From a virus (Duplodnaviria > Heunggongvirae > Uroviricota > Caudoviricetes): a stretch of 40,687 nucleotides of DNA. Made by a program: the position numbers and the translations under genes. Below, piece after piece: positions 4,036-15,603 of this stretch; position 1 is the first letter of the stretch, and every line of letters begins with the position of its first letter. The notes below the pieces were generated by a model, which searched no databases, was not told the origin of the DNA, and saw only the letters and a program-made list of their open reading frames with translations. The stretch lies in the IMG/VR virus record IMGVR_UViG_2563366891_000016. One strand, given 5' to 3'.

Positions 4036-4397
4036 TATGCTCCAGCCTCCGGCGCTTTTGGCATTACTGCCCAGTGAGTGATATTGAAGTTTTCAAGGTC
4101 CCCGACCTGAAATGTCCACTGCCATTCTCCGGTTTCTTTTTGTCCCCAGGTGTACCAGAGAGAACGCCAGCCAATCAGCCAGCCTTCTCCGTTAGCATCA
4201 AATAACAGAACACTTTCATTTGCTGGTGGCAGTTCAGCTGACACTGGTATTATTTTGTTTTCCAGTGCCGCACATTTAGCTTCAAGCGCGTCGAATTTAC
4301 GTACCAGGTACTCAGCATTTGTTTCATTCACTTTCAGATCTCGCGGTACACATTTCCCGCGAAGAAACCCTTCCATTTCGAAAACATTCATGCGCAT
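4035..4397 (-). CDS. yfdS: YfdS-like phage protein with DUF551-like motif (120 aa)
   Basis: 120 aa, matching the recalled length of CPS-53 YfdS; C-terminal HWAVMPKAPE; overlaps flanking genes. Confidence 0.45.
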   Translation of the reverse strand: MRMNVFEMEGFLRGKCVPRDLKVNETNAEYLVRKFDALEAKCAALENKIIPVSAELPPANESVLLFDANGEGWLIGWRSLWYTWGQKETGEWQWTFQVGDLENFNITHWAVMPKAPEAGA

Positions 4398-4924
4398 TTG
4401 CGTAACTCCGATAACTCGTTAAAACGTTCCATAAACATCCCGTAGGCATGACCCGGTGCCAGTGGAATCACGTTGAACATCTCTGTTGCCGGGATGCCTT
4501 CCAGTACAGGCCAGAAAGAGCCATCATCAAGCCCGAGATCGCGGCGTTCGGTTGCCAGCATGATAAGATCGGCATATTTCACGGGCGTACTCATAACTGG
4601 GGGTAACCCGTATTTCTCACGGATTACGGCGTCAATTTTTTCTTCCATCCGTTTATAGTCAGGAAGAAGGCGTTTCAGTGGAGCGGGAATATCCTGGCAA
4701 TACGCTTCTGTTGCATCATGCATTAACGCTTCAAAAGCAAATTCCTGCGGCACCAGCTGGCTGCAAAGCACCGCATGTTGGGCGACACTGTAGAAGTGAG
4801 AAAGATGACCGGCAAAGCGGCAGATATTTGAAAGGGAAACCGCGATATCGTTAATCACGATGTCGTCTTTATTTATCTTGTCATAATAAAAATGCTTCCC
4901 GGAAAAAGTTTTAATAAATGACAT
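4388..4924 (-). CDS. yfdR: HD-domain phosphohydrolase (YfdR-like, 178 aa from MSFIK start)
   Basis: H...HD metal-binding motif (HAVLCSQLV...EALMHDATE); ATG at 4922-4924 with ggag RBS 7 nt upstream gives 178 aa, the recalled length of CPS-53 YfdR. Confidence 0.55.
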   Translation of the reverse strand: MSFIKTFSGKHFYYDKINKDDIVINDIAVSLSNICRFAGHLSHFYSVAQHAVLCSQLVPQEFAFEALMHDATEAYCQDIPAPLKRLLPDYKRMEEKIDAVIREKYGLPPVMSTPVKYADLIMLATERRDLGLDDGSFWPVLEGIPATEMFNVIPLAPGHAYGMFMERFNELSELRKCA

Positions 4925-5051
4925 TTTGTTCTCCACGTATATGCGCTGCACCGCGCTGAGTTTGGGTAAAAGGAAGCCCTCACCATCCGGTGATTATTGA
5001 GTTAATTACGTTTCCATAAATGCCCCCGCAGGGGCATTTGCAGTAATGAAA

Positions 5052-5876
5052 TCAGGCGGTGAAAGTACCAATAAAGGTTTCTACTTTGCTGTCTTTGAAT
5101 TTCTCAACAAGCAGATCACGAAATTCGTTAGCCATATCTTCCTGCACCGCTTCCAGCTGAATAATGCGCAGAACCAGTACAGGACGATCGCCAGTGATAA
5201 TGCTGAGGCGTAATTTAAACGGACGTTCTTTCAGACCTTCAAACGGAACGCATTTAAATTCAAATGCCACTGGCATAATGTCTTTGGTCTTCGCTTCGAC
5301 AGATTCCATCAGGGAGCGTTTGCCGCTGAAGTCATTATCTTCAAAATCAGCGGTCTGGTTTGCTTCAATCGTGATTTTACGGACTGCCGCAGCCGCTTTT
5401 GTTGCCTGAATAGCGTCACCATTAGCATCAAAGCCCACAAGGTAGTCGGCCCAGTCTTCAATCCATTCTGCCAGTGACTTCTGGGAGTTACGCTCGCCGT
5501 TAACAGACAACAGGGCAGAGAACGGTGCTGTCTTTTTCAGTTTGAGAGTGGCGGTGTTATCTGCGTGACCTGGTTCATCAATAGTACCCAGGTTAAGTAC
5601 ACTGACGGCACGCATATTATCAGCATCGATAAAGCAGCGGGTGCCTTCATCTGCAAGATCTTTAGAATAACGGGTAAAGTCATCGATGCTGGCAGTGGAA
5701 AGCGCACCACGGAAACGGAAGCGATTTAAATTAAATTTTTCCAGATCATGAATGCGGAAATTCTCAGGCAATGCCACAGCATCGGCACCAATCTTACTGA
5801 TAATTTCATTAACACCCTGAGCAGAAATAAGGGCATGGATTTGATTAATTGCGGTTGCGTCTAAGTTCTGAGACAT
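5052..5876 (-). CDS. yfdQ: YfdQ-like protein (DUF2303), 274 aa
   Basis: 274 aa, the recalled length of K-12 CPS-53 YfdQ, in the same position within the yfdP-Q-R-S order. Confidence 0.5.
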
Positions 5877-5941: not shown

Positions 5942-6304
5942 TTAATGACCTGCTGCGCGTAGTTTTCCGTCAGGTTCACCGGCAAGAGTCAGTAATTGTC
6001 CCTGGTCTTCCTGCAGAATAGTCAGGCGACCACCGCGATTGACATACATCGGCGTTTCGGTGGTGTCTTCTTCGGAAATTTTCCCGCGGTTAGTCGGGCG
6101 AACATATGAGAGTTTGTGTTTGATTTTCACACGGTTCTCATCAAATGGTTCGATTTCCAGGTTGAGTGAGACCTTACCTTTGGTTTTCGTGTTCATCACA
6201 CCGGAAGCGACTTCACTGAGAACAGCGCCGATTTTGGTTTCAAATACGCCGCCGTCCAGCTCCCCGATAAATGCCTGCACATCAGTACTGCGTTCGCTAG
6301 CCAT
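5942..6304 (-). CDS. yfdP: YfdP-like protein (120 aa), start at MASERS
   Basis: ATG at 6302-6304 preceded by GAGGAG 7 nt upstream; 120 aa as recalled for YfdP. The longer track ORF to 6532 starts at GTG inside a structured non-coding region. Confidence 0.5.
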   Translation of the reverse strand: MASERSTDVQAFIGELDGGVFETKIGAVLSEVASGVMNTKTKGKVSLNLEIEPFDENRVKIKHKLSYVRPTNRGKISEEDTTETPMYVNRGGRLTILQEDQGQLLTLAGEPDGKLRAAGH

Positions 6305-6440
6305 TTTGCTGCTCCTCATCATATCGACCCTGCAAGGTCGGTTAGTTTCTCCACAAAACAGAGAAGAACACCTGCGGTGGCAGCCGCCCGGATGGATTGG
6401 GTTATGAGCCCGTCGTCCGGTGATGCTCTTCTCTGTTTTG

Positions 6441-6486
6441 TAAAAAGAGCGGTACCAGCCGGAAGCAAGGGTACAAACTGGTACCG
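6441..6486 (-). terminator. Intrinsic terminator on the minus strand
   Basis: 9-bp stem cggtaccag/ctggtaccg (6450-6458 / 6478-6486) with 19-nt loop, followed on the minus strand by ctcttttta. Confidence 0.45.
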
Positions 6487-6547
6487 CCAGGACTACACAC
6501 AGCAATGAAACTATTGCCTGTCTTTTCACCACTTCAGGCTCGGTGGT

Positions 6548-6925
6548 ATGCTGGAGTTCTCACACAGCCAGCAAGGAAACCTAATGAACCAGTTTTATGT
6601 TCACGTTCGTCTGTTTGAAGCAACAGCCGAACAGACCAAAAAATTTGAAGAATTAATGCTTAACTTTCTGTACCAGAAAACAATCAAAGAGTCTGACGAT
6701 AGCTGCTGCAGACTGATTCCAGAGGGATATATCCTCAAAAGCACAATGAACTGCCAACAAATCCTTGATCAAACTTTTTCCATTGCTAACAGTGCTGGTG
6801 TTGACGCAAATATATTTGTCTGCAAATTTGAACAAAGCGTATGCTTACTTCCGTCTGCTTCCTTAGTTGGCAACGATTTTGTTCATCACGATCTTACGCC
6901 TAAGCCCATCAAGCTCGATTCTTAA
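6548..6925 (+). CDS. Opposite-strand hypothetical protein (moron-like); alternative start at 6584 (MNQFYV)
   Basis: AT-rich ORF on the + strand inside a minus-strand operon; 6584 has RBS aagga 7 nt upstream; preceded by long inverted repeats. Confidence 0.4.
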   Translation: MLEFSHSQQGNLMNQFYVHVRLFEATAEQTKKFEELMLNFLYQKTIKESDDSCCRLIPEGYILKSTMNCQQILDQTFSIANSAGVDANIFVCKFEQSVCLLPSASLVGNDFVHHDLTPKPIKLDS

Positions 6926-7171
6926 TGCCTTAACCATTGTGTCGTGATAAACACGGCTCACCCTCTCTCCATTGCATGGCAGTGGGGTGATCGTGTTAGC
7001 CATGAAATTCATGAACTTGGTTCGATCAGGGTCTTGCGCCTCGCAAGTCTTTAATGCCTGTTTTGCTAACAAAATACGGGCCTCAGTGCCTGCATTTGGC
7101 TCTATCTGCTGCAAACGTTTAGCGTCTTCCAGCAACAATGCGATCACATGCTTCAAATCCTGCTCATTCAT
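6863..7171 (-). CDS. First gene of the leftward early (PL) operon, hypothetical (102 aa)
   Basis: ATG at 7169-7171 with ggagag RBS; lies where lambda N sits, but the protein is not arginine-rich, so no N assignment. Confidence 0.5.
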   Translation of the reverse strand: MNEQDLKHVIALLLEDAKRLQQIEPNAGTEARILLAKQALKTCEAQDPDRTKFMNFMANTITPLPCNGERVSRVYHDTMVKALRIELDGLRRKIVMNKIVAN

Positions 7172-7275
7172 CTATTCTCTCCACTGAAATCATCCGCTAA
7201 CGAATCATCCTGGACTTCATATGCCCCAGGCGGCTACTTCGTGGGCGTCCTGCCTGTTCGTTACTGCAACATCTT

Positions 7276-7319
7276 TAAGTTGTAATCTAGTTGTTGTTTT
7301 GGTTGTTGTCAACAACTTT
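7276..7319. promoter_or_regulatory. Left operator/promoter region (OL/PL-like)
   Basis: Repeated AAGTTGTTG / CAACAACTT half-sites; the same motif recurs in the cI-cro intergenic region. Confidence 0.45.
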
Positions 7320-7506: not shown

Positions 7507-8193
7507 TTACCAAGTGCGCGATGACCAGAATACTCTACCTATAACGTGAATTCTGGAACGCCTATCTTCGAAGGTGAGTATTTCATCTGGATACTCATCT
7601 TTATTGAAACTTCTTAGAATCAGACCACCGTCAGGTAAATTGATCAATATTTTAACTCTAAGTAATACGCCATCACGTATGGCATAAAGATCCCCATCAC
7701 GAATAGGAACCGTTTGGGAAACATCAACAGCAACAAAATCTCCATTGTTAAGTACAGGTAGTAAACTATTGCCCCAAATTTTTACGATCTTTGCATTGGA
7801 GACACATACACCAGCTTTTCTTAAATCAATCCTTCTTAGCGGGAACCAGTCTACAGTTGATTCAACTATTTCAGCCAAACATCCATTACCCGCTGATAAC
7901 TCGACATCTAGGACTGGAATGTTTGCAAAAATGTCAGGATCTAATGCTGTACTTTCAGCCTCCTTTACAACAAGGTCTGGGAAAGACGCGTTATCCTCAA
8001 TGCCCAATTGCAACCACTTTTGAGAAACCCCTAACACTTTAGCAATCTCTTTAATTTTCCGAGGCTGTTGAGTTTCTCCATTCTCGATTTTCGCTACGGA
8101 TTGTTGTGAAAGCCCAATTTTTTCAGCTAGTTGCGCCTGACTCATTCCTGCTTTTTCTCTTTCGCTTTTTAGTCTTTCTGCCAATGTTTTCAC
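7507..8193 (-). CDS. cI: CI-like prophage repressor (HTH plus LexA-like S24 peptidase domain)
   Basis: N-terminal HTH (MSQAQLAEKIGLSQQSVAKIENG) and C-terminal autocleavage-type domain; GTG start with gaggggga RBS; divergent from the cro-like gene. Confidence 0.8.
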   Translation of the reverse strand: MKTLAERLKSEREKAGMSQAQLAEKIGLSQQSVAKIENGETQQPRKIKEIAKVLGVSQKWLQLGIEDNASFPDLVVKEAESTALDPDIFANIPVLDVELSAGNGCLAEIVESTVDWFPLRRIDLRKAGVCVSNAKIVKIWGNSLLPVLNNGDFVAVDVSQTVPIRDGDLYAIRDGVLLRVKILINLPDGGLILRSFNKDEYPDEILTFEDRRSRIHVIGRVFWSSRTW

Positions 8194-13179: not shown

Positions 13180-14175
13180 GTGACCGTGAGAGCACTACTG
13201 ACCCCTGAAATTGCCCCGCGTATGGGGATCGTATTGTTCAGACCAGGTTCAGAGCTGATGCCCTTGTTTATGCAGGGGCGTGTCCTGCTGGAGCCTGAGC
13301 CGGAACGTTATTCATCTTTCGCCAGTGGTGCCGTTCCGGCGGCATCACAACCGCTGGCGGATGATCCTGCCGTTCGGGCCGTGTTCCGCAATGAGGCAGT
13401 GATCCGTCGTGCTGGTGGCGTGGAATGTCTTGAAAGCTGGTTACTTCGTGAAAAAGGCTGCCAGTGGCCTCATTCCGACTGGCACAGCGAGAACATGACA
13501 ACAATGCGACACGCTCCGGGCGCAATCCGTCTGTGCTGGCACTGCGATAACCAGCTGCGCGATCAGTTCACGGAACGGCTGGAATCAATGGCAACGGATA
13601 ACTGTGCCCGCTGGGTGTTGTCTGTTGTGCGTCGGGATCTCGGTTTTGATGACAGTCATGTTGTGACAATGCCGGAACTGTGCTGGTGGCTGATTCGTAA
13701 TGATCTGGCGGATGCCTTACCGGAAAGTGCAGCCCGTAAGGCACTGAGATTACCGAAGCCTGTTGTGCCGTCTGTTACCCGGGAAAGTGACCTTGTGCCT
13801 TCGGTTCCTGCCACCAGCATCATCCAGGATAAGGCGAAAAAGGTGCTGGCGCTGAAAGTGGATCCGGAGTCGCCGGAGTCTTTTATGTTACGCCCAAAAC
13901 GTCGCCGCTGGGTTAATGAAAAGTACACGCGCTGGGTTAAGACACAGCCGTGTGCATGTTGTGGAAAGCCTGCTGATGATCCCCACCACCTGATAGGTCA
14001 CGGTCAGGGGGGAATGGGTACAAAAGCGCATGACCTCTTTGTGTTGCCTTTGTGCAGAAAGCATCACGACGAGCTGCATGCGGATACCGTGGCATTTGAA
14101 GAGAAGTATGGCTCCCAGTTGGAGCTGATATTTCGTTTTATCGATCGTGCGCTGGCAACAGGCGTACTGGCGTAA
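13180..14175 (+). CDS. DUF968-like prophage protein with C-terminal Cys/His-rich motif
   Basis: C-terminal CACCGKPADDPHHLIGHG...LCRKHHDELH; in the nin-region position before Q; start codon uncertain. Confidence 0.4.
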   Translation: MTVRALLTPEIAPRMGIVLFRPGSELMPLFMQGRVLLEPEPERYSSFASGAVPAASQPLADDPAVRAVFRNEAVIRRAGGVECLESWLLREKGCQWPHSDWHSENMTTMRHAPGAIRLCWHCDNQLRDQFTERLESMATDNCARWVLSVVRRDLGFDDSHVVTMPELCWWLIRNDLADALPESAARKALRLPKPVVPSVTRESDLVPSVPATSIIQDKAKKVLALKVDPESPESFMLRPKRRRWVNEKYTRWVKTQPCACCGKPADDPHHLIGHGQGGMGTKAHDLFVLPLCRKHHDELHADTVAFEEKYGSQLELIFRFIDRALATGVLA

Positions 14176-14188
14176 GTGGAGAACGAGC

Positions 14189-14941
14189 ATGAACCTTGAA
14201 GCCTTACCGAAATATTACTCCCCGAAATCTCCAAAACTGAGCGATGATGCACCGGCGACAGGCTCTGGTGGTTTAACAATTACGGATGTGATGGCTGCGC
14301 AGGGGATGGTGCAGTCGAAAGCACCGCTTGGGTTTGCCTTATTCCTGGCAAAAGTTGGTGTTCAGGATCCTCAGTTTGCGATTGAAGGTCTGCTCAATTA
14401 CGCGATGGCACTGGATAACCCGACATTGAATAAATTGAGTGAAGAAACCCGGCTACAGATCATTCCTTACCTTGTGAATTTTGCCTTTGCTGATTATTCC
14501 AGGTCTGCGGCAAGTAAGGCTCGCTGTGAGCATTGTGCAGGTACGGGATTTCATAATGTATTGCGCGAAGTGGTGAAACACTCCAGAAGCGGGGAGTCTG
14601 TTATCAAGGAAGAGTGGGTGAAGGAACTATGTCAGCATTGTCATGGTAAGGGAGAAGTCAGCACAGCGTGCAGAGGGTGTAAGGGTAAAGGTATTGTCCT
14701 GGATGAAAAAAGGACCCGGCTTCATGGCACGCCTGTTTATAAGATTTGTGGGCGTTGCAATGGAAACCGGTTTAGCCGTTTACCAACCACACTGGCGCGG
14801 TGTCATGTCCAGAAGCTGGTACCAGCCCTGACTGATTATCAGTGGTACAAAGGATATGCAGATGTCATTGATAAACTGGTGACAAAGTGCTGGCAGGAAG
14901 AAGCATATGCTGAGGCGCAATTAAGAAAAGTGACGAGATAA
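14189..14941 (+). CDS. Late antitermination protein Q-like (zinc-finger repeats)
   Basis: Last early gene, directly upstream of a promoter-plus-terminator leader and the lysis cassette; repeated CxxCxGxG motifs; ATG at 14189 with ggag RBS. Confidence 0.55.
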   Translation: MNLEALPKYYSPKSPKLSDDAPATGSGGLTITDVMAAQGMVQSKAPLGFALFLAKVGVQDPQFAIEGLLNYAMALDNPTLNKLSEETRLQIIPYLVNFAFADYSRSAASKARCEHCAGTGFHNVLREVVKHSRSGESVIKEEWVKELCQHCHGKGEVSTACRGCKGKGIVLDEKRTRLHGTPVYKICGRCNGNRFSRLPTTLARCHVQKLVPALTDYQWYKGYADVIDKLVTKCWQEEAYAEAQLRKVTR

Positions 14942-14972
14942 ATGATTTTCGCCGAAGATAGCGACATGATTC

Positions 14973-15001
14973 TTGCATTTTTCAAAAAATCTGGTTAGGA
15001 T
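14973..15001 (+). promoter_or_regulatory. Putative late promoter PR' (-35 TTGCAT, 17-bp spacer, -10 TAGGAT)
   Basis: Located just after the Q stop and before the tR'-like terminator. Confidence 0.4.
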
Positions 15002-15047
15002 TCTCCTAACGATGGGCTTTGTGTGTCTACCGTTGATAATCTTCAAG

Positions 15048-15071
15048 AAACCGCCACCGAGCGGTTTTTTA
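15048..15071 (+). terminator. tR'-like intrinsic terminator
   Basis: Stem aaaccgc/gcggttt with 6-nt loop, followed by a T-run. Confidence 0.65.
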
Positions 15072-15229
15072 TTGATGTCAATTGTGTTTTTAAGGCTCTC
15101 CTTCCTTAAAGTGTGTTGTACAAAAAACTGGCAGCCAGCTACGCTCATTTTGAAAAAGTGACACCCTTCAATGTTTCTTTTGAATGGAATTGCTACCCAT
15201 AAATCTCTATCAAAAACAGGAGAGCATAT

Positions 15230-15472
15230 ATGGTGGAGCGTTGTTCTGTTTGTGAGCAGTCATTAAGTTATTCACGAGAAGTTGAACAAGATGGCGTTGA
15301 ATATAAATCTTGCCCAAAATGTTCTGCTGATGCCGGAGTGCACGTTTTTTATAAAACAATAGACTTTGGTTATAGGGATATGGGAGACGGAAGGCATATC
15401 GTTCAGTCATGGTGTCCGGCTTGTCGTTCTGGTGAAAAACCTTCTATACCACCAGCATTTAAATGTTGTTAA
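15230..15472 (+). CDS. Small zinc-ribbon protein (80 aa)
   Basis: ATG with AGGAG 7 nt upstream; Cys pairs CSVCEQ, CPKC, CPAC and a C-terminal CC; flanked by tR' upstream and its own terminator downstream. Confidence 0.5.
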   Translation: MVERCSVCEQSLSYSREVEQDGVEYKSCPKCSADAGVHVFYKTIDFGYRDMGDGRHIVQSWCPACRSGEKPSIPPAFKCC

Positions 15473-15491
15473 CTCAATGAATTATAAAAAG

Positions 15492-15516
15492 AGGCTGCCT
15501 GTGGGCGGCCTTTTTT
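15492..15516 (+). terminator. Intrinsic terminator
   Basis: Stem aggctgcc/ggcggcct (one mismatch) followed by a run of 6 T. Confidence 0.55.
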
Positions 15517-15603
15517 GTGCACTACGCAACTTTTGCGACTCAGCGCTATAACCAGCTTCTTTCCCTTCACTCGTTGCACTTCCGATAACCGGAGGTGGGA
15601 ATT

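Follow-up and report, generated by a model that had tools for sequence, protein, structure and literature searches.

Several small RNAs of enterobacteria and their prophages, together with processing sites of phage transcripts, provide the known systems closest to the element described here. DicF (RF00039) is encoded in the repressor-proximal early operon of a lambdoid prophage and has a terminator at its end. PasD1 of E2348/69, the one member of STnc100/PasD (RF02076) that was inspected, lies in the late region between the Q gene and the holin gene. Hairpins cut by RNase III are found in phage early transcripts, as in the N leader and sib of lambda and the R sites of T7. RprA (RF00034) is an Rcs-controlled core gene with a rpoS- and narP-pairing region in its 5′ 60 nt, while its last 47 nt, termed RprAproc, are active alone (PMC9262595). 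The present analysis concerns positions 6305-6925 of a 40,687-nt stretch of DNA, called the window below, which represents a lambdoid (SfV/e14-like) Escherichia coli prophage (IMG/VR record IMGVR_UViG_2563366891_000016). An earlier note had described this segment as an accessory (moron-type) gene with its own structured region. On balance, the comparative data favour replacing this description by two independent units on opposite strands, namely a moron cassette carrying the gene ymfI on the plus strand and a structured RNA of the early-left (PL) transcript on the minus strand. The RNA module is a further version of the known small-RNA and terminator modules of prophages, extended by a structure called H2. 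It is composed of the following parts, given in the order of transcription:

6491-6506, minus strand: 16-nt single strand AUUGCUGUGUGUAGUC, equal to the consensus of RprA just 5′ of its terminator
6441-6488, minus strand: H1, a GC-rich hairpin of 13 pairs (6448-6488) followed by CUUUUUA (6447-6441), terminator-like
6353-6441, minus strand: H2, 89 nt, with a base stem P1 of about 20 bp, a stem P2 and a variable arm P3 (RNAalifold, covariation)
6352-6347, minus strand: GGAGAA, which follows H2 in 108 of 109 distinct loci
6325-6340, minus strand: H3, a small hairpin with the loop UUGCA, just before the ribosome site of yfdP
about 6311-6316, minus strand: Shine-Dalgarno sequence GAGGAG of yfdP

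All features described in the earlier note were recovered at the same positions or a few bases off, and both of its hairpins are non-random. H2 folds with -45.5 kcal/mol (z = -7.3), a stability equalled by none of 200 shuffles. The inverted repeat by which it had been noticed (6354-6370/6424-6440) turned out to have longer arms, 6353-6377 and 6417-6441, which are 25 nt in length, 84% complementary and built around a 15-bp perfect core. RNAalifold on 18 diverse H2 copies yields a three-way junction in which P2 is formed by CCGGA..UCCGG around GGG-CUCAUAA-CCC. In this structure 97.4% of the H2 cells are paired, as opposed to 92.0% in shuffles, of which none out of 500 reached the observed value, and 38-56% in slid controls. 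Changes on both sides occur at eight pairs, and P2 itself covaries (CCGGG/CCCGG, CCGGA/UCCGG, CCAGG/CCUGG). A U·G pair is conserved in 17 of the 18 sequences, and the exchanges between UA and UG and between AU and GU would be A·C mismatches if read on the plus strand. The G·U pairs and compensatory changes therefore identify the minus strand, within the PL transcript, as the functional strand of H2. This does not support the earlier view of a structured 280-bp region that precedes the plus-strand gene. The unpaired nucleotides of H2 are invariant across genera.

H2 is present as a single copy within the window. A pattern scan recovered 51 distinct H2 sequences at more than 100 viral loci. When species-representative genomes were scanned, 11 genera of the Enterobacterales proved to have the H2 core (Escherichia, Shigella, Citrobacter, Klebsiella, Enterobacter, Kosakonia, Phytobacter, Buttiauxella, Pseudescherichia, Mixta and Erwinia). 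The core or the full enterobacterial-type module was also seen in a Chryseobacterium sp. assembly (L147) and a metagenome-assembled genome of the Geobacteraceae (L151), which most likely reflects contamination or mis-binning and not a wider host range. H2 has no match in Rfam 15, whether the whole window is searched at gathering thresholds or in E-value mode, and H1 and H2 are described nowhere in the literature searched on ymfI, ymfH, yfdP and the RprA-like and ST64B small RNAs. The motif GCGG-UUGCA-GCCGC is often common to H3 and the tip of P3 (L018, L035, L144, L153 and others; 6325-6340 in the window), and H3-type GC hairpins with a UUGCA or UGGCA loop recur with differing stems. By itself, H3 is not significantly stable (z -0.6). 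The body that precedes the 16-mer in related prophages (see below) contains another hairpin, with AGGCA as its loop and CCGGG/CCCGG or GGUGG/CCACC as its stem. These recurring pentaloop hairpins may hint at a common binding factor.

The independence of the two units is also seen in their distribution. In SfV, SfII, SfIV, mEp460, cdtI, Stx2 phages, ST64B, phiNP, LLS and Klebsiella phages the module precedes homologues of yfdP or other genes, and ymfI is missing. Conversely, ymfI is present without the module in Klebsiella and Enterobacter prophages. The genes that follow the module vary and include yfdP and xisE, among others.

H1 contains a perfect stem of 10 bp (6449-6458/6478-6487) and folds with -21.2 kcal/mol (z = -4.6), with none of 200 shuffles as stable. 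In nearly all of 59 distinct variants a hairpin with a U-run stands directly before H2, but the stems of these terminators are unrelated in sequence (GGCGGUACCAG..., GCCCAUC..., GGCGGUUAUCCAG..., GGCGGCAUC...), and the core GCUGUGUG[A/U]AG is found upstream of the terminator, beside unlike stems, in 50 of 108 loci. The 16-mer corresponds to the exposed part of processed RprA, and the window shares with RprA the identical 16 nt directly 5′ of a terminator hairpin. The differences from RprA are nonetheless considerable: the 60 nt of the RprA 5′ region are missing, only the 3′ 16-45 nt match, the terminator of the window is DicF-like, and the module is prophage-borne and placed inside an operon, whereas RprA is a core gene. 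In LLS (L010, 1557-1655) as well as in L023, L024, L029, L038, L095, L148, L151 and L154, CAUUGCUGUGUGUAGUCUUUGCCCAUC...GGUGGGCACCUUUUUU stands directly before H2. Such LLS-type copies in the PL leader of phages amount to nearly the whole of processed RprA, terminator included. LLS and related copies share about 26 consecutive nt and the terminator type with RprA, and LLS scores 39.7 bits.

The likeness to DicF extends from the sequence of H1 to the layout of the locus. H1 aligns to the full length of the DicF model below threshold; its score is 15.7 bits (E 0.3-2.2) for the window and 28.5 bits (E 0.02) for the e14 prophage of K-12. Like dicF at the mEp460_ev081 locus, the module belongs to the early operon next to the repressor of a lambdoid prophage. 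It comes after a convergent small open reading frame (ORF) with the same promoter block, and it ends in a terminator-like hairpin of the UGGCGGUAnCAG... type with a U-run. The order at the true dicF locus is a convergent small ORF with the promoter block, a body, and then seed and terminator. The single-stranded 5′ part of DicF is, however, unrelated to that of the module, and DicF is followed by an STnc100-like start and dicB instead of H2. In detail, positions 1200-1620 of the mEp460_ev081 dicF locus (L138) contain the promoter block with a convergent ORF of 66 amino acids (aa), dicF, the STnc100-like start GTGATGCGGTGAATGCGGCTGAGCGCACGCGG and dicB. To judge from these arrangements, DicF, the STnc100-like bodies and the present module look like shuffled parts of one system.

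STnc100 enters the comparison through those relatives in which the module is longer. In SfV, SfII, ST64B and e14, a block ending in H1 spans the full 206-nt STnc100 model, with 29.2-39.5 bits and E-values of 2e-5 to 0.01, all below the gathering score of 47. PasD1 differs in location, being encoded in the late region rather than within the PL operon. The e14 prophage has the same convergent and overlapping layout of ymfI, ymfJ and “ymfH” next to a LexA-like repressor and is 93% identical to the window in DNA sequence over 6315-7200. It differs in three respects: an additional stretch of about 150 nt, the STnc100-like body, separates the promoter block of ymfI from the 16-mer; the module is followed by xisE-intE and not by yfdP; and the module is annotated as the coding sequence (CDS) ymfH. 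This K-12 ymfH CDS (L002, 3002-3313; 6319-6532 in the window) lies wholly over the body, the 16-mer, H1 and H2. By alignment, the window is a deletion variant without the STnc100-like body of about 150 nt that e14 and SfV possess. The e14 body holds the sole plausible minus-strand promoter (-35 AAGACA, -10 TATTTT, identified by eye), and since the body and its promoter are gone from the window, a small RNA could arise there only by termination or processing of the PL transcript. The Pas small RNAs of enteropathogenic E. coli were dismissed as positional homologues, since in E2348/69 the late region holds PasD1 and the tail region holds PasB. The idea of a Q-dependent late leader for the STnc100-like body was also dropped, as the Q gene of the window (14147-14941, PF03589) is followed by a lambda-type PR′/tR′ and not by an STnc100-like sequence. 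The region after Q (14941-15595) consists of PR′ with a tR′-like terminator at about 14970-15075, a small Cys-rich ORF (15231-15470) with a terminator of its own at about 15490-15515, and the holin gene; the Cys-rich ORF looks like a late-region moron.

The second unit, on the plus strand, is made up as follows:

6516-6583, plus strand: predicted promoter and 5′ leader block of ymfI, 68 nt, conserved across genera
6544-6552, plus strand: predicted extended -10 element TGGTATGCT
6550-6554 / 6568-6572: covarying stem GCTGG / CCAGC, which adjoins the ribosome site
6573-6579, plus strand: Shine-Dalgarno sequence AAGGAAA
6584-6925, plus strand: ymfI CDS, 113 aa (RefSeq start in a 99.8%-identical locus; NCBIfam NF051477; dN/dS; AlphaFold)

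The ORF of about 113-125 aa that had been seen to converge on the first PL gene is confirmed, with a 63-bp overlap with the minus-strand gene at 6863-7171. The longer reading (6548-6925) has 125 aa and begins at an in-frame ATG at 6548, which falls inside the predicted -10 element and is probably not the start used. While no family had been recognised for the product, it matches NCBIfam NF051477 (“YmfI family phage protein”) with 159.9 bits against a cutoff of 140 and over profile positions 1-89 of 89, and phrog_8894 with an E-value of 3.8e-41; ymfI, first named in prophage e14 of K-12, is thus a known but uncharacterised family. Its supposed AT-richness is mild: the GC content of 0.40-0.41 is below the 0.54 of the structured region, but the nearby repressor region has 0.37-0.43. 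The ratio of nonsynonymous to synonymous substitution rates (dN/dS) between E. coli, Salmonella, Klebsiella and Enterobacter is 0.09-0.19 at dS 0.6-0.96, which makes ymfI a real protein gene under purifying selection. The last 21 codons, which overlap ymfJ, are especially conserved. A search for distant relatives returned 30 clusters of homologues with 74-98% identity, all from Enterobacteriaceae, and none beyond these.

Structure prediction, which the earlier note had proposed alongside a homology search, shows a ferredoxin-like core in residues 1-84 and a disordered tail in residues 85-113 (AlphaFold; mean predicted local distance difference test score 72, core 85-94). The nearest solved structure is GhoS, which the ferredoxin-like fold of YmfI resembles. 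One notion is that YmfI is a GhoS/Cas2-like endoribonuclease which, together with ymfJ or the adjacent RNA, would form a type V-like toxin-antitoxin or exclusion module. In sequence, hhalign gives the pair of YmfI and GhoS a probability of 0.2%, and a profile search of the PDB was empty. Neither Pfam nor the PADLOC defence models find anything in YmfI, YmfJ or YfdP of the window, and a BFVD search with YmfI gave no match at E <= 0.001. Such a module is considered quite unlikely.

The promoter block itself is what is shared by ymfI loci. Over about 70 nt, the Salmonella, Klebsiella and Enterobacter loci depart from the window at 1-2 positions, even though synonymous sites next to the block are close to saturation (dS 0.6-0.96). 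In a scan of viral contigs the same block was found at more than 120 loci (129), where at least 25 unrelated small ORFs, 25-149 aa long, follow it, so that YmfI is one cargo among many and the block is a hypervariable cargo slot directed against PL. Among the cargo ORFs that follow the block (GCCTGTCTTTTnACCACnTCAGGCnnGGTGGTATnCT, hairpin, AAGGAAA) are zinc-ribbon-like and membrane-like proteins. The GCUGG/CCAGC stem covaries, for example as CUUGG/CCAAG and ACUGG/CCAGU, with each strand favoured by one variant. The 68-nt block is not unusually structured (z -0.5 and -0.9); this weakly structured block and not the hairpin region is the part truly tied to ymfI. The proposal of an independently regulated accessory gene is retained in the sense that ymfI has its own predicted promoter, set against the PL operon. 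A cII-type promoter box was considered and rejected: one near-match to TTGC-N6-TTGC was seen by eye, with the wrong spacing to the -10 element and without conservation. On the plus strand, a weak hairpin of terminator type (CTTGCGCCTCGCAAG, then TCTTTAATGC) lies within ymfJ at 7033-7057. The ymfI transcript may stop there, in which case some 190 nt of it would be antisense to ymfJ.

The genes and promoter of the PL operon around the two units are the following:

7507-8193, minus strand: repressor gene with helix-turn-helix and S24 domains
7284-7312, minus strand: PL-like promoter TTGACA-17-TAGATT, between ymfJ and the repressor gene (consensus scan, 10 of 12 matches)
6863-7171, minus strand: ymfJ-like gene, 102 aa, first gene of the PL operon, with its 3′ end overlapping ymfI (phrog_12693)
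5942-6304, minus strand: yfdP, 120 aa, first gene after the RNA module (RefSeq; phrog_204; Pfam YfdP on the Salmonella homologue)
5052-5876, minus strand: yfdQ/DUF2303
4388-4951, minus strand: yfdR

The plus strand near the locus carries a YdaS/Cro-like gene and ymfL. Positions 6250-7200 are found at 99.8% identity in RefSeq E. coli chromosomes, where the plus-strand ORF is labelled ymfI; at least 80% of this segment is held by 303 of 5426 complete E. coli genomes, and among genomes with any of it the median is one place per genome. At all ymfI loci examined, the gene converges on the first PL gene (102-126 aa) and overlaps it. The ymfI/ymfJ pair adjoins three different repressor types, and the downstream PL genes vary (yfdP, kil, ydfE). 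Late in the SOS response of K-12, ymfJ rises by about 4-4.8 log2 units and ymfI by 1-2 only (PMC11002266). The YmfT iModulon contains ymfJ, ymfH, xisE and intE, while ymfI is absent (PMC12133099). Separate control of ymfI fits both its weaker SOS response and its absence from the lytic iModulon of e14. Its expression would presumably take place in the lysogen and, once the prophage is induced, be opposed by transcription from PL.

A mechanism for the two units would take the following form. As cargo of the moron cassette, ymfI would be transcribed from the 68-nt block, whose extended -10 element and short leader up to AAGGAAA face PL. The PL transcript would pass through ymfJ, the antisense of ymfI and its promoter, the 16-mer and H1. 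By its architecture, the combination of 16-mer, H1 and U-tail may be the 3′ module of an Hfq-type small RNA. H1 would be the first terminator of the PL operon and the positional equivalent of DicF, and termination or processing at H1 would yield an Hfq-type 3′ fragment; in e14, SfV and ST64B the module would be the 3′ end of an STnc100-like RNA of about 200 nt. Upon read-through past H1, the sequence of H2, GGAGAA and H3 would become the leader of yfdP-yfdQ-yfdR, with translation from yfdP on. The preferred guess for H2 is that the P1 helix of about 20 bp acts as a processing or stabilising site of the RNase III type and that the invariant P2 loops bind a factor, by which the small RNA would be separated from the downstream mRNA and downstream expression set. 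Like RNase III sites, H2 contains a long and near-perfect helix, about two turns in length, which is set between functional units on an early polycistronic RNA. It is unlike the classical sites in being a three-way junction with invariant loops.

A number of observations weigh against this reading. The form of an intrinsic terminator, which had been assigned to the minus strand at 6441-6486, stands as far as the stem and the five U are concerned, but five U is all there is, the loop is unusually large (15-19 nt), and the terminator scan, which accepts loops of 3-8 nt only, does not list H1. The conservation of the 16-mer could reflect a binding site of Hfq or RNase E and not a pairing seed. 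All Rfam matches are below their gathering scores (DicF 15.7 against 48, RprA 18.4 against 70), and the STnc100 model (gathering score 47) has zero matches in the window. Without the body, the window has no minus-strand promoter for a separate small RNA. The ymfI promoter is a sequence-based assignment which the consensus promoter scan of the window does not list. Finally, the 196-aa frame that contains yfdP (5942-6532) is open through H2 and H1 in the window and close E. coli relatives, and 59 of 88 loci keep the frame of yfdP free of stops through H1.

The open frames raise the question of whether the minus strand of this region encodes protein, either ymfH-like or as an N-terminal extension of YfdP (the 196-aa ORF). 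The K-12 RefSeq annotation indeed places the CDS ymfH on the homologous DNA, and a plasmid clone of ymfH is reported to trigger the retron-Sen2 toxin RcaT (bioRxiv 10.1101/2020.06.22.160242, preprint). However, the ymfH reading frame differs between K-12 and the window, H2 lengths of 104, 105, 107, 108, 123, 127, 128, 130 and 131 nt include differences that are not divisible by three, H2 and the yfdP ATG are separated by distances in all three phases (61, 17 and 10 loci), and in-frame stops within H1-H3 are found in 29 of 88 loci. These lengths, phases and stops speak against a coding role that is conserved. Substitutions furthermore track base pairing and not codons, and no Pfam or NCBIfam family matches the region as protein, so that a coding role is regarded as highly improbable. 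A short upstream ORF of 10-18 codons, (A/G)UG-GAG-AAA... (6305-6352, minus strand), was rejected as well, as it has no Shine-Dalgarno sequence of its own, encodes unrelated peptides and starts with ACG in one lineage. In most lineages it begins with the last base of H2, runs across H3 and terminates at, or just ahead of, the Shine-Dalgarno sequence of yfdP. The palindromes could instead act as DNA, be it as a recombination linker, a protein-binding site or a miniature inverted-repeat element, as the segment lies exactly at mosaic breakpoints of phage modules and includes a perfect inverted repeat of 15 bp. The compensatory changes and the strand specificity of the G·U pairs point to selection on RNA, and the single copy in the window together with a median of one place per E. 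coli genome with any speaks against a dispersed repeat, which leaves this explanation scarcely credible.

If the structure acts as RNA, it may still belong to ymfI, with hairpins that form the cis-regulatory region of the plus-strand gene or encode an RNA controlling it. They are directly upstream of ymfI on the plus strand, both strands fold well, and a 17-nt direct repeat (6495-6511 and 6564-6580, 82% identical) ties the region to the ymfI leader; by this repeat, a minus-strand RNA could pair imperfectly with the ymfI ribosome site. The pattern of G·U pairs favours the minus strand, however, H1 and H2 occur in many phages without ymfI and ymfI elsewhere without them, and in K-12 an extra 150 nt separate the hairpins from ymfI, all of which renders a link to ymfI very unlikely. 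As the main alternative, H2 could be a processive antiterminator like put of HK022, which works without a protein and would let polymerases that pass H1 continue along the early-left operon as far as xis and int. Of the PL-adjacent genes scanned, none was recognised as N-like, and ymfJ has no Pfam or NCBIfam match; moreover, H2 heads a long operon, its two arms recall the two stem-loops of put, and its unpaired nucleotides are invariant across genera. By contrast, the PL and PR regions of HK022 have no similarity to H2 or to the STnc100-like body, H2 comes after a terminator and not before it, and the window has one H2 copy without a partner on the PR side, so that neither similarity to put nor one copy per early operon is seen. 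The best H2 match in HK022, a 14-mer in the presumed nun CDS, was no better than those of shuffled queries. An antiterminator is accordingly judged unlikely, and two independent units on opposite strands are preferred.

For the biology of the prophage family, the most far-reaching form of this reading would be that the 16-mer and H1 are a prophage mimic of processed RprA and that H2 is a new class of cis-acting RNA which gates early-left operons in temperate phages across the Enterobacterales. Taken as a whole this is a tentative proposal with a modest chance of being right. If true, induction or leaky expression would set the mimic free from the PL transcript, and it would then take over the RprAproc regulon (e.g. 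narP) or compete with RprA for Hfq and targets. The K-12 “gene” ymfH would then be this RNA and the trigger activity towards retron-Sen2 an RNA effect. ymfH is most likely a structured RNA module and not a protein, which would make the standing K-12 annotation wrong, and the trigger by the ymfH clone could be due to RNA. DicF, STnc100/PasD and RprA, which have been studied separately, would be joined as exchangeable components of a single prophage RNA module whose seeds, terminators and bodies can be swapped. This would also offer a concrete candidate source for RprAproc-like activity. H2 adds an undescribed, covariation-supported RNA motif of at least 11 genera of the Enterobacterales, and the promoter cassette with its at least 25 cargo genes is a likely place for exclusion or defence functions expressed in the lysogen, YmfI included.

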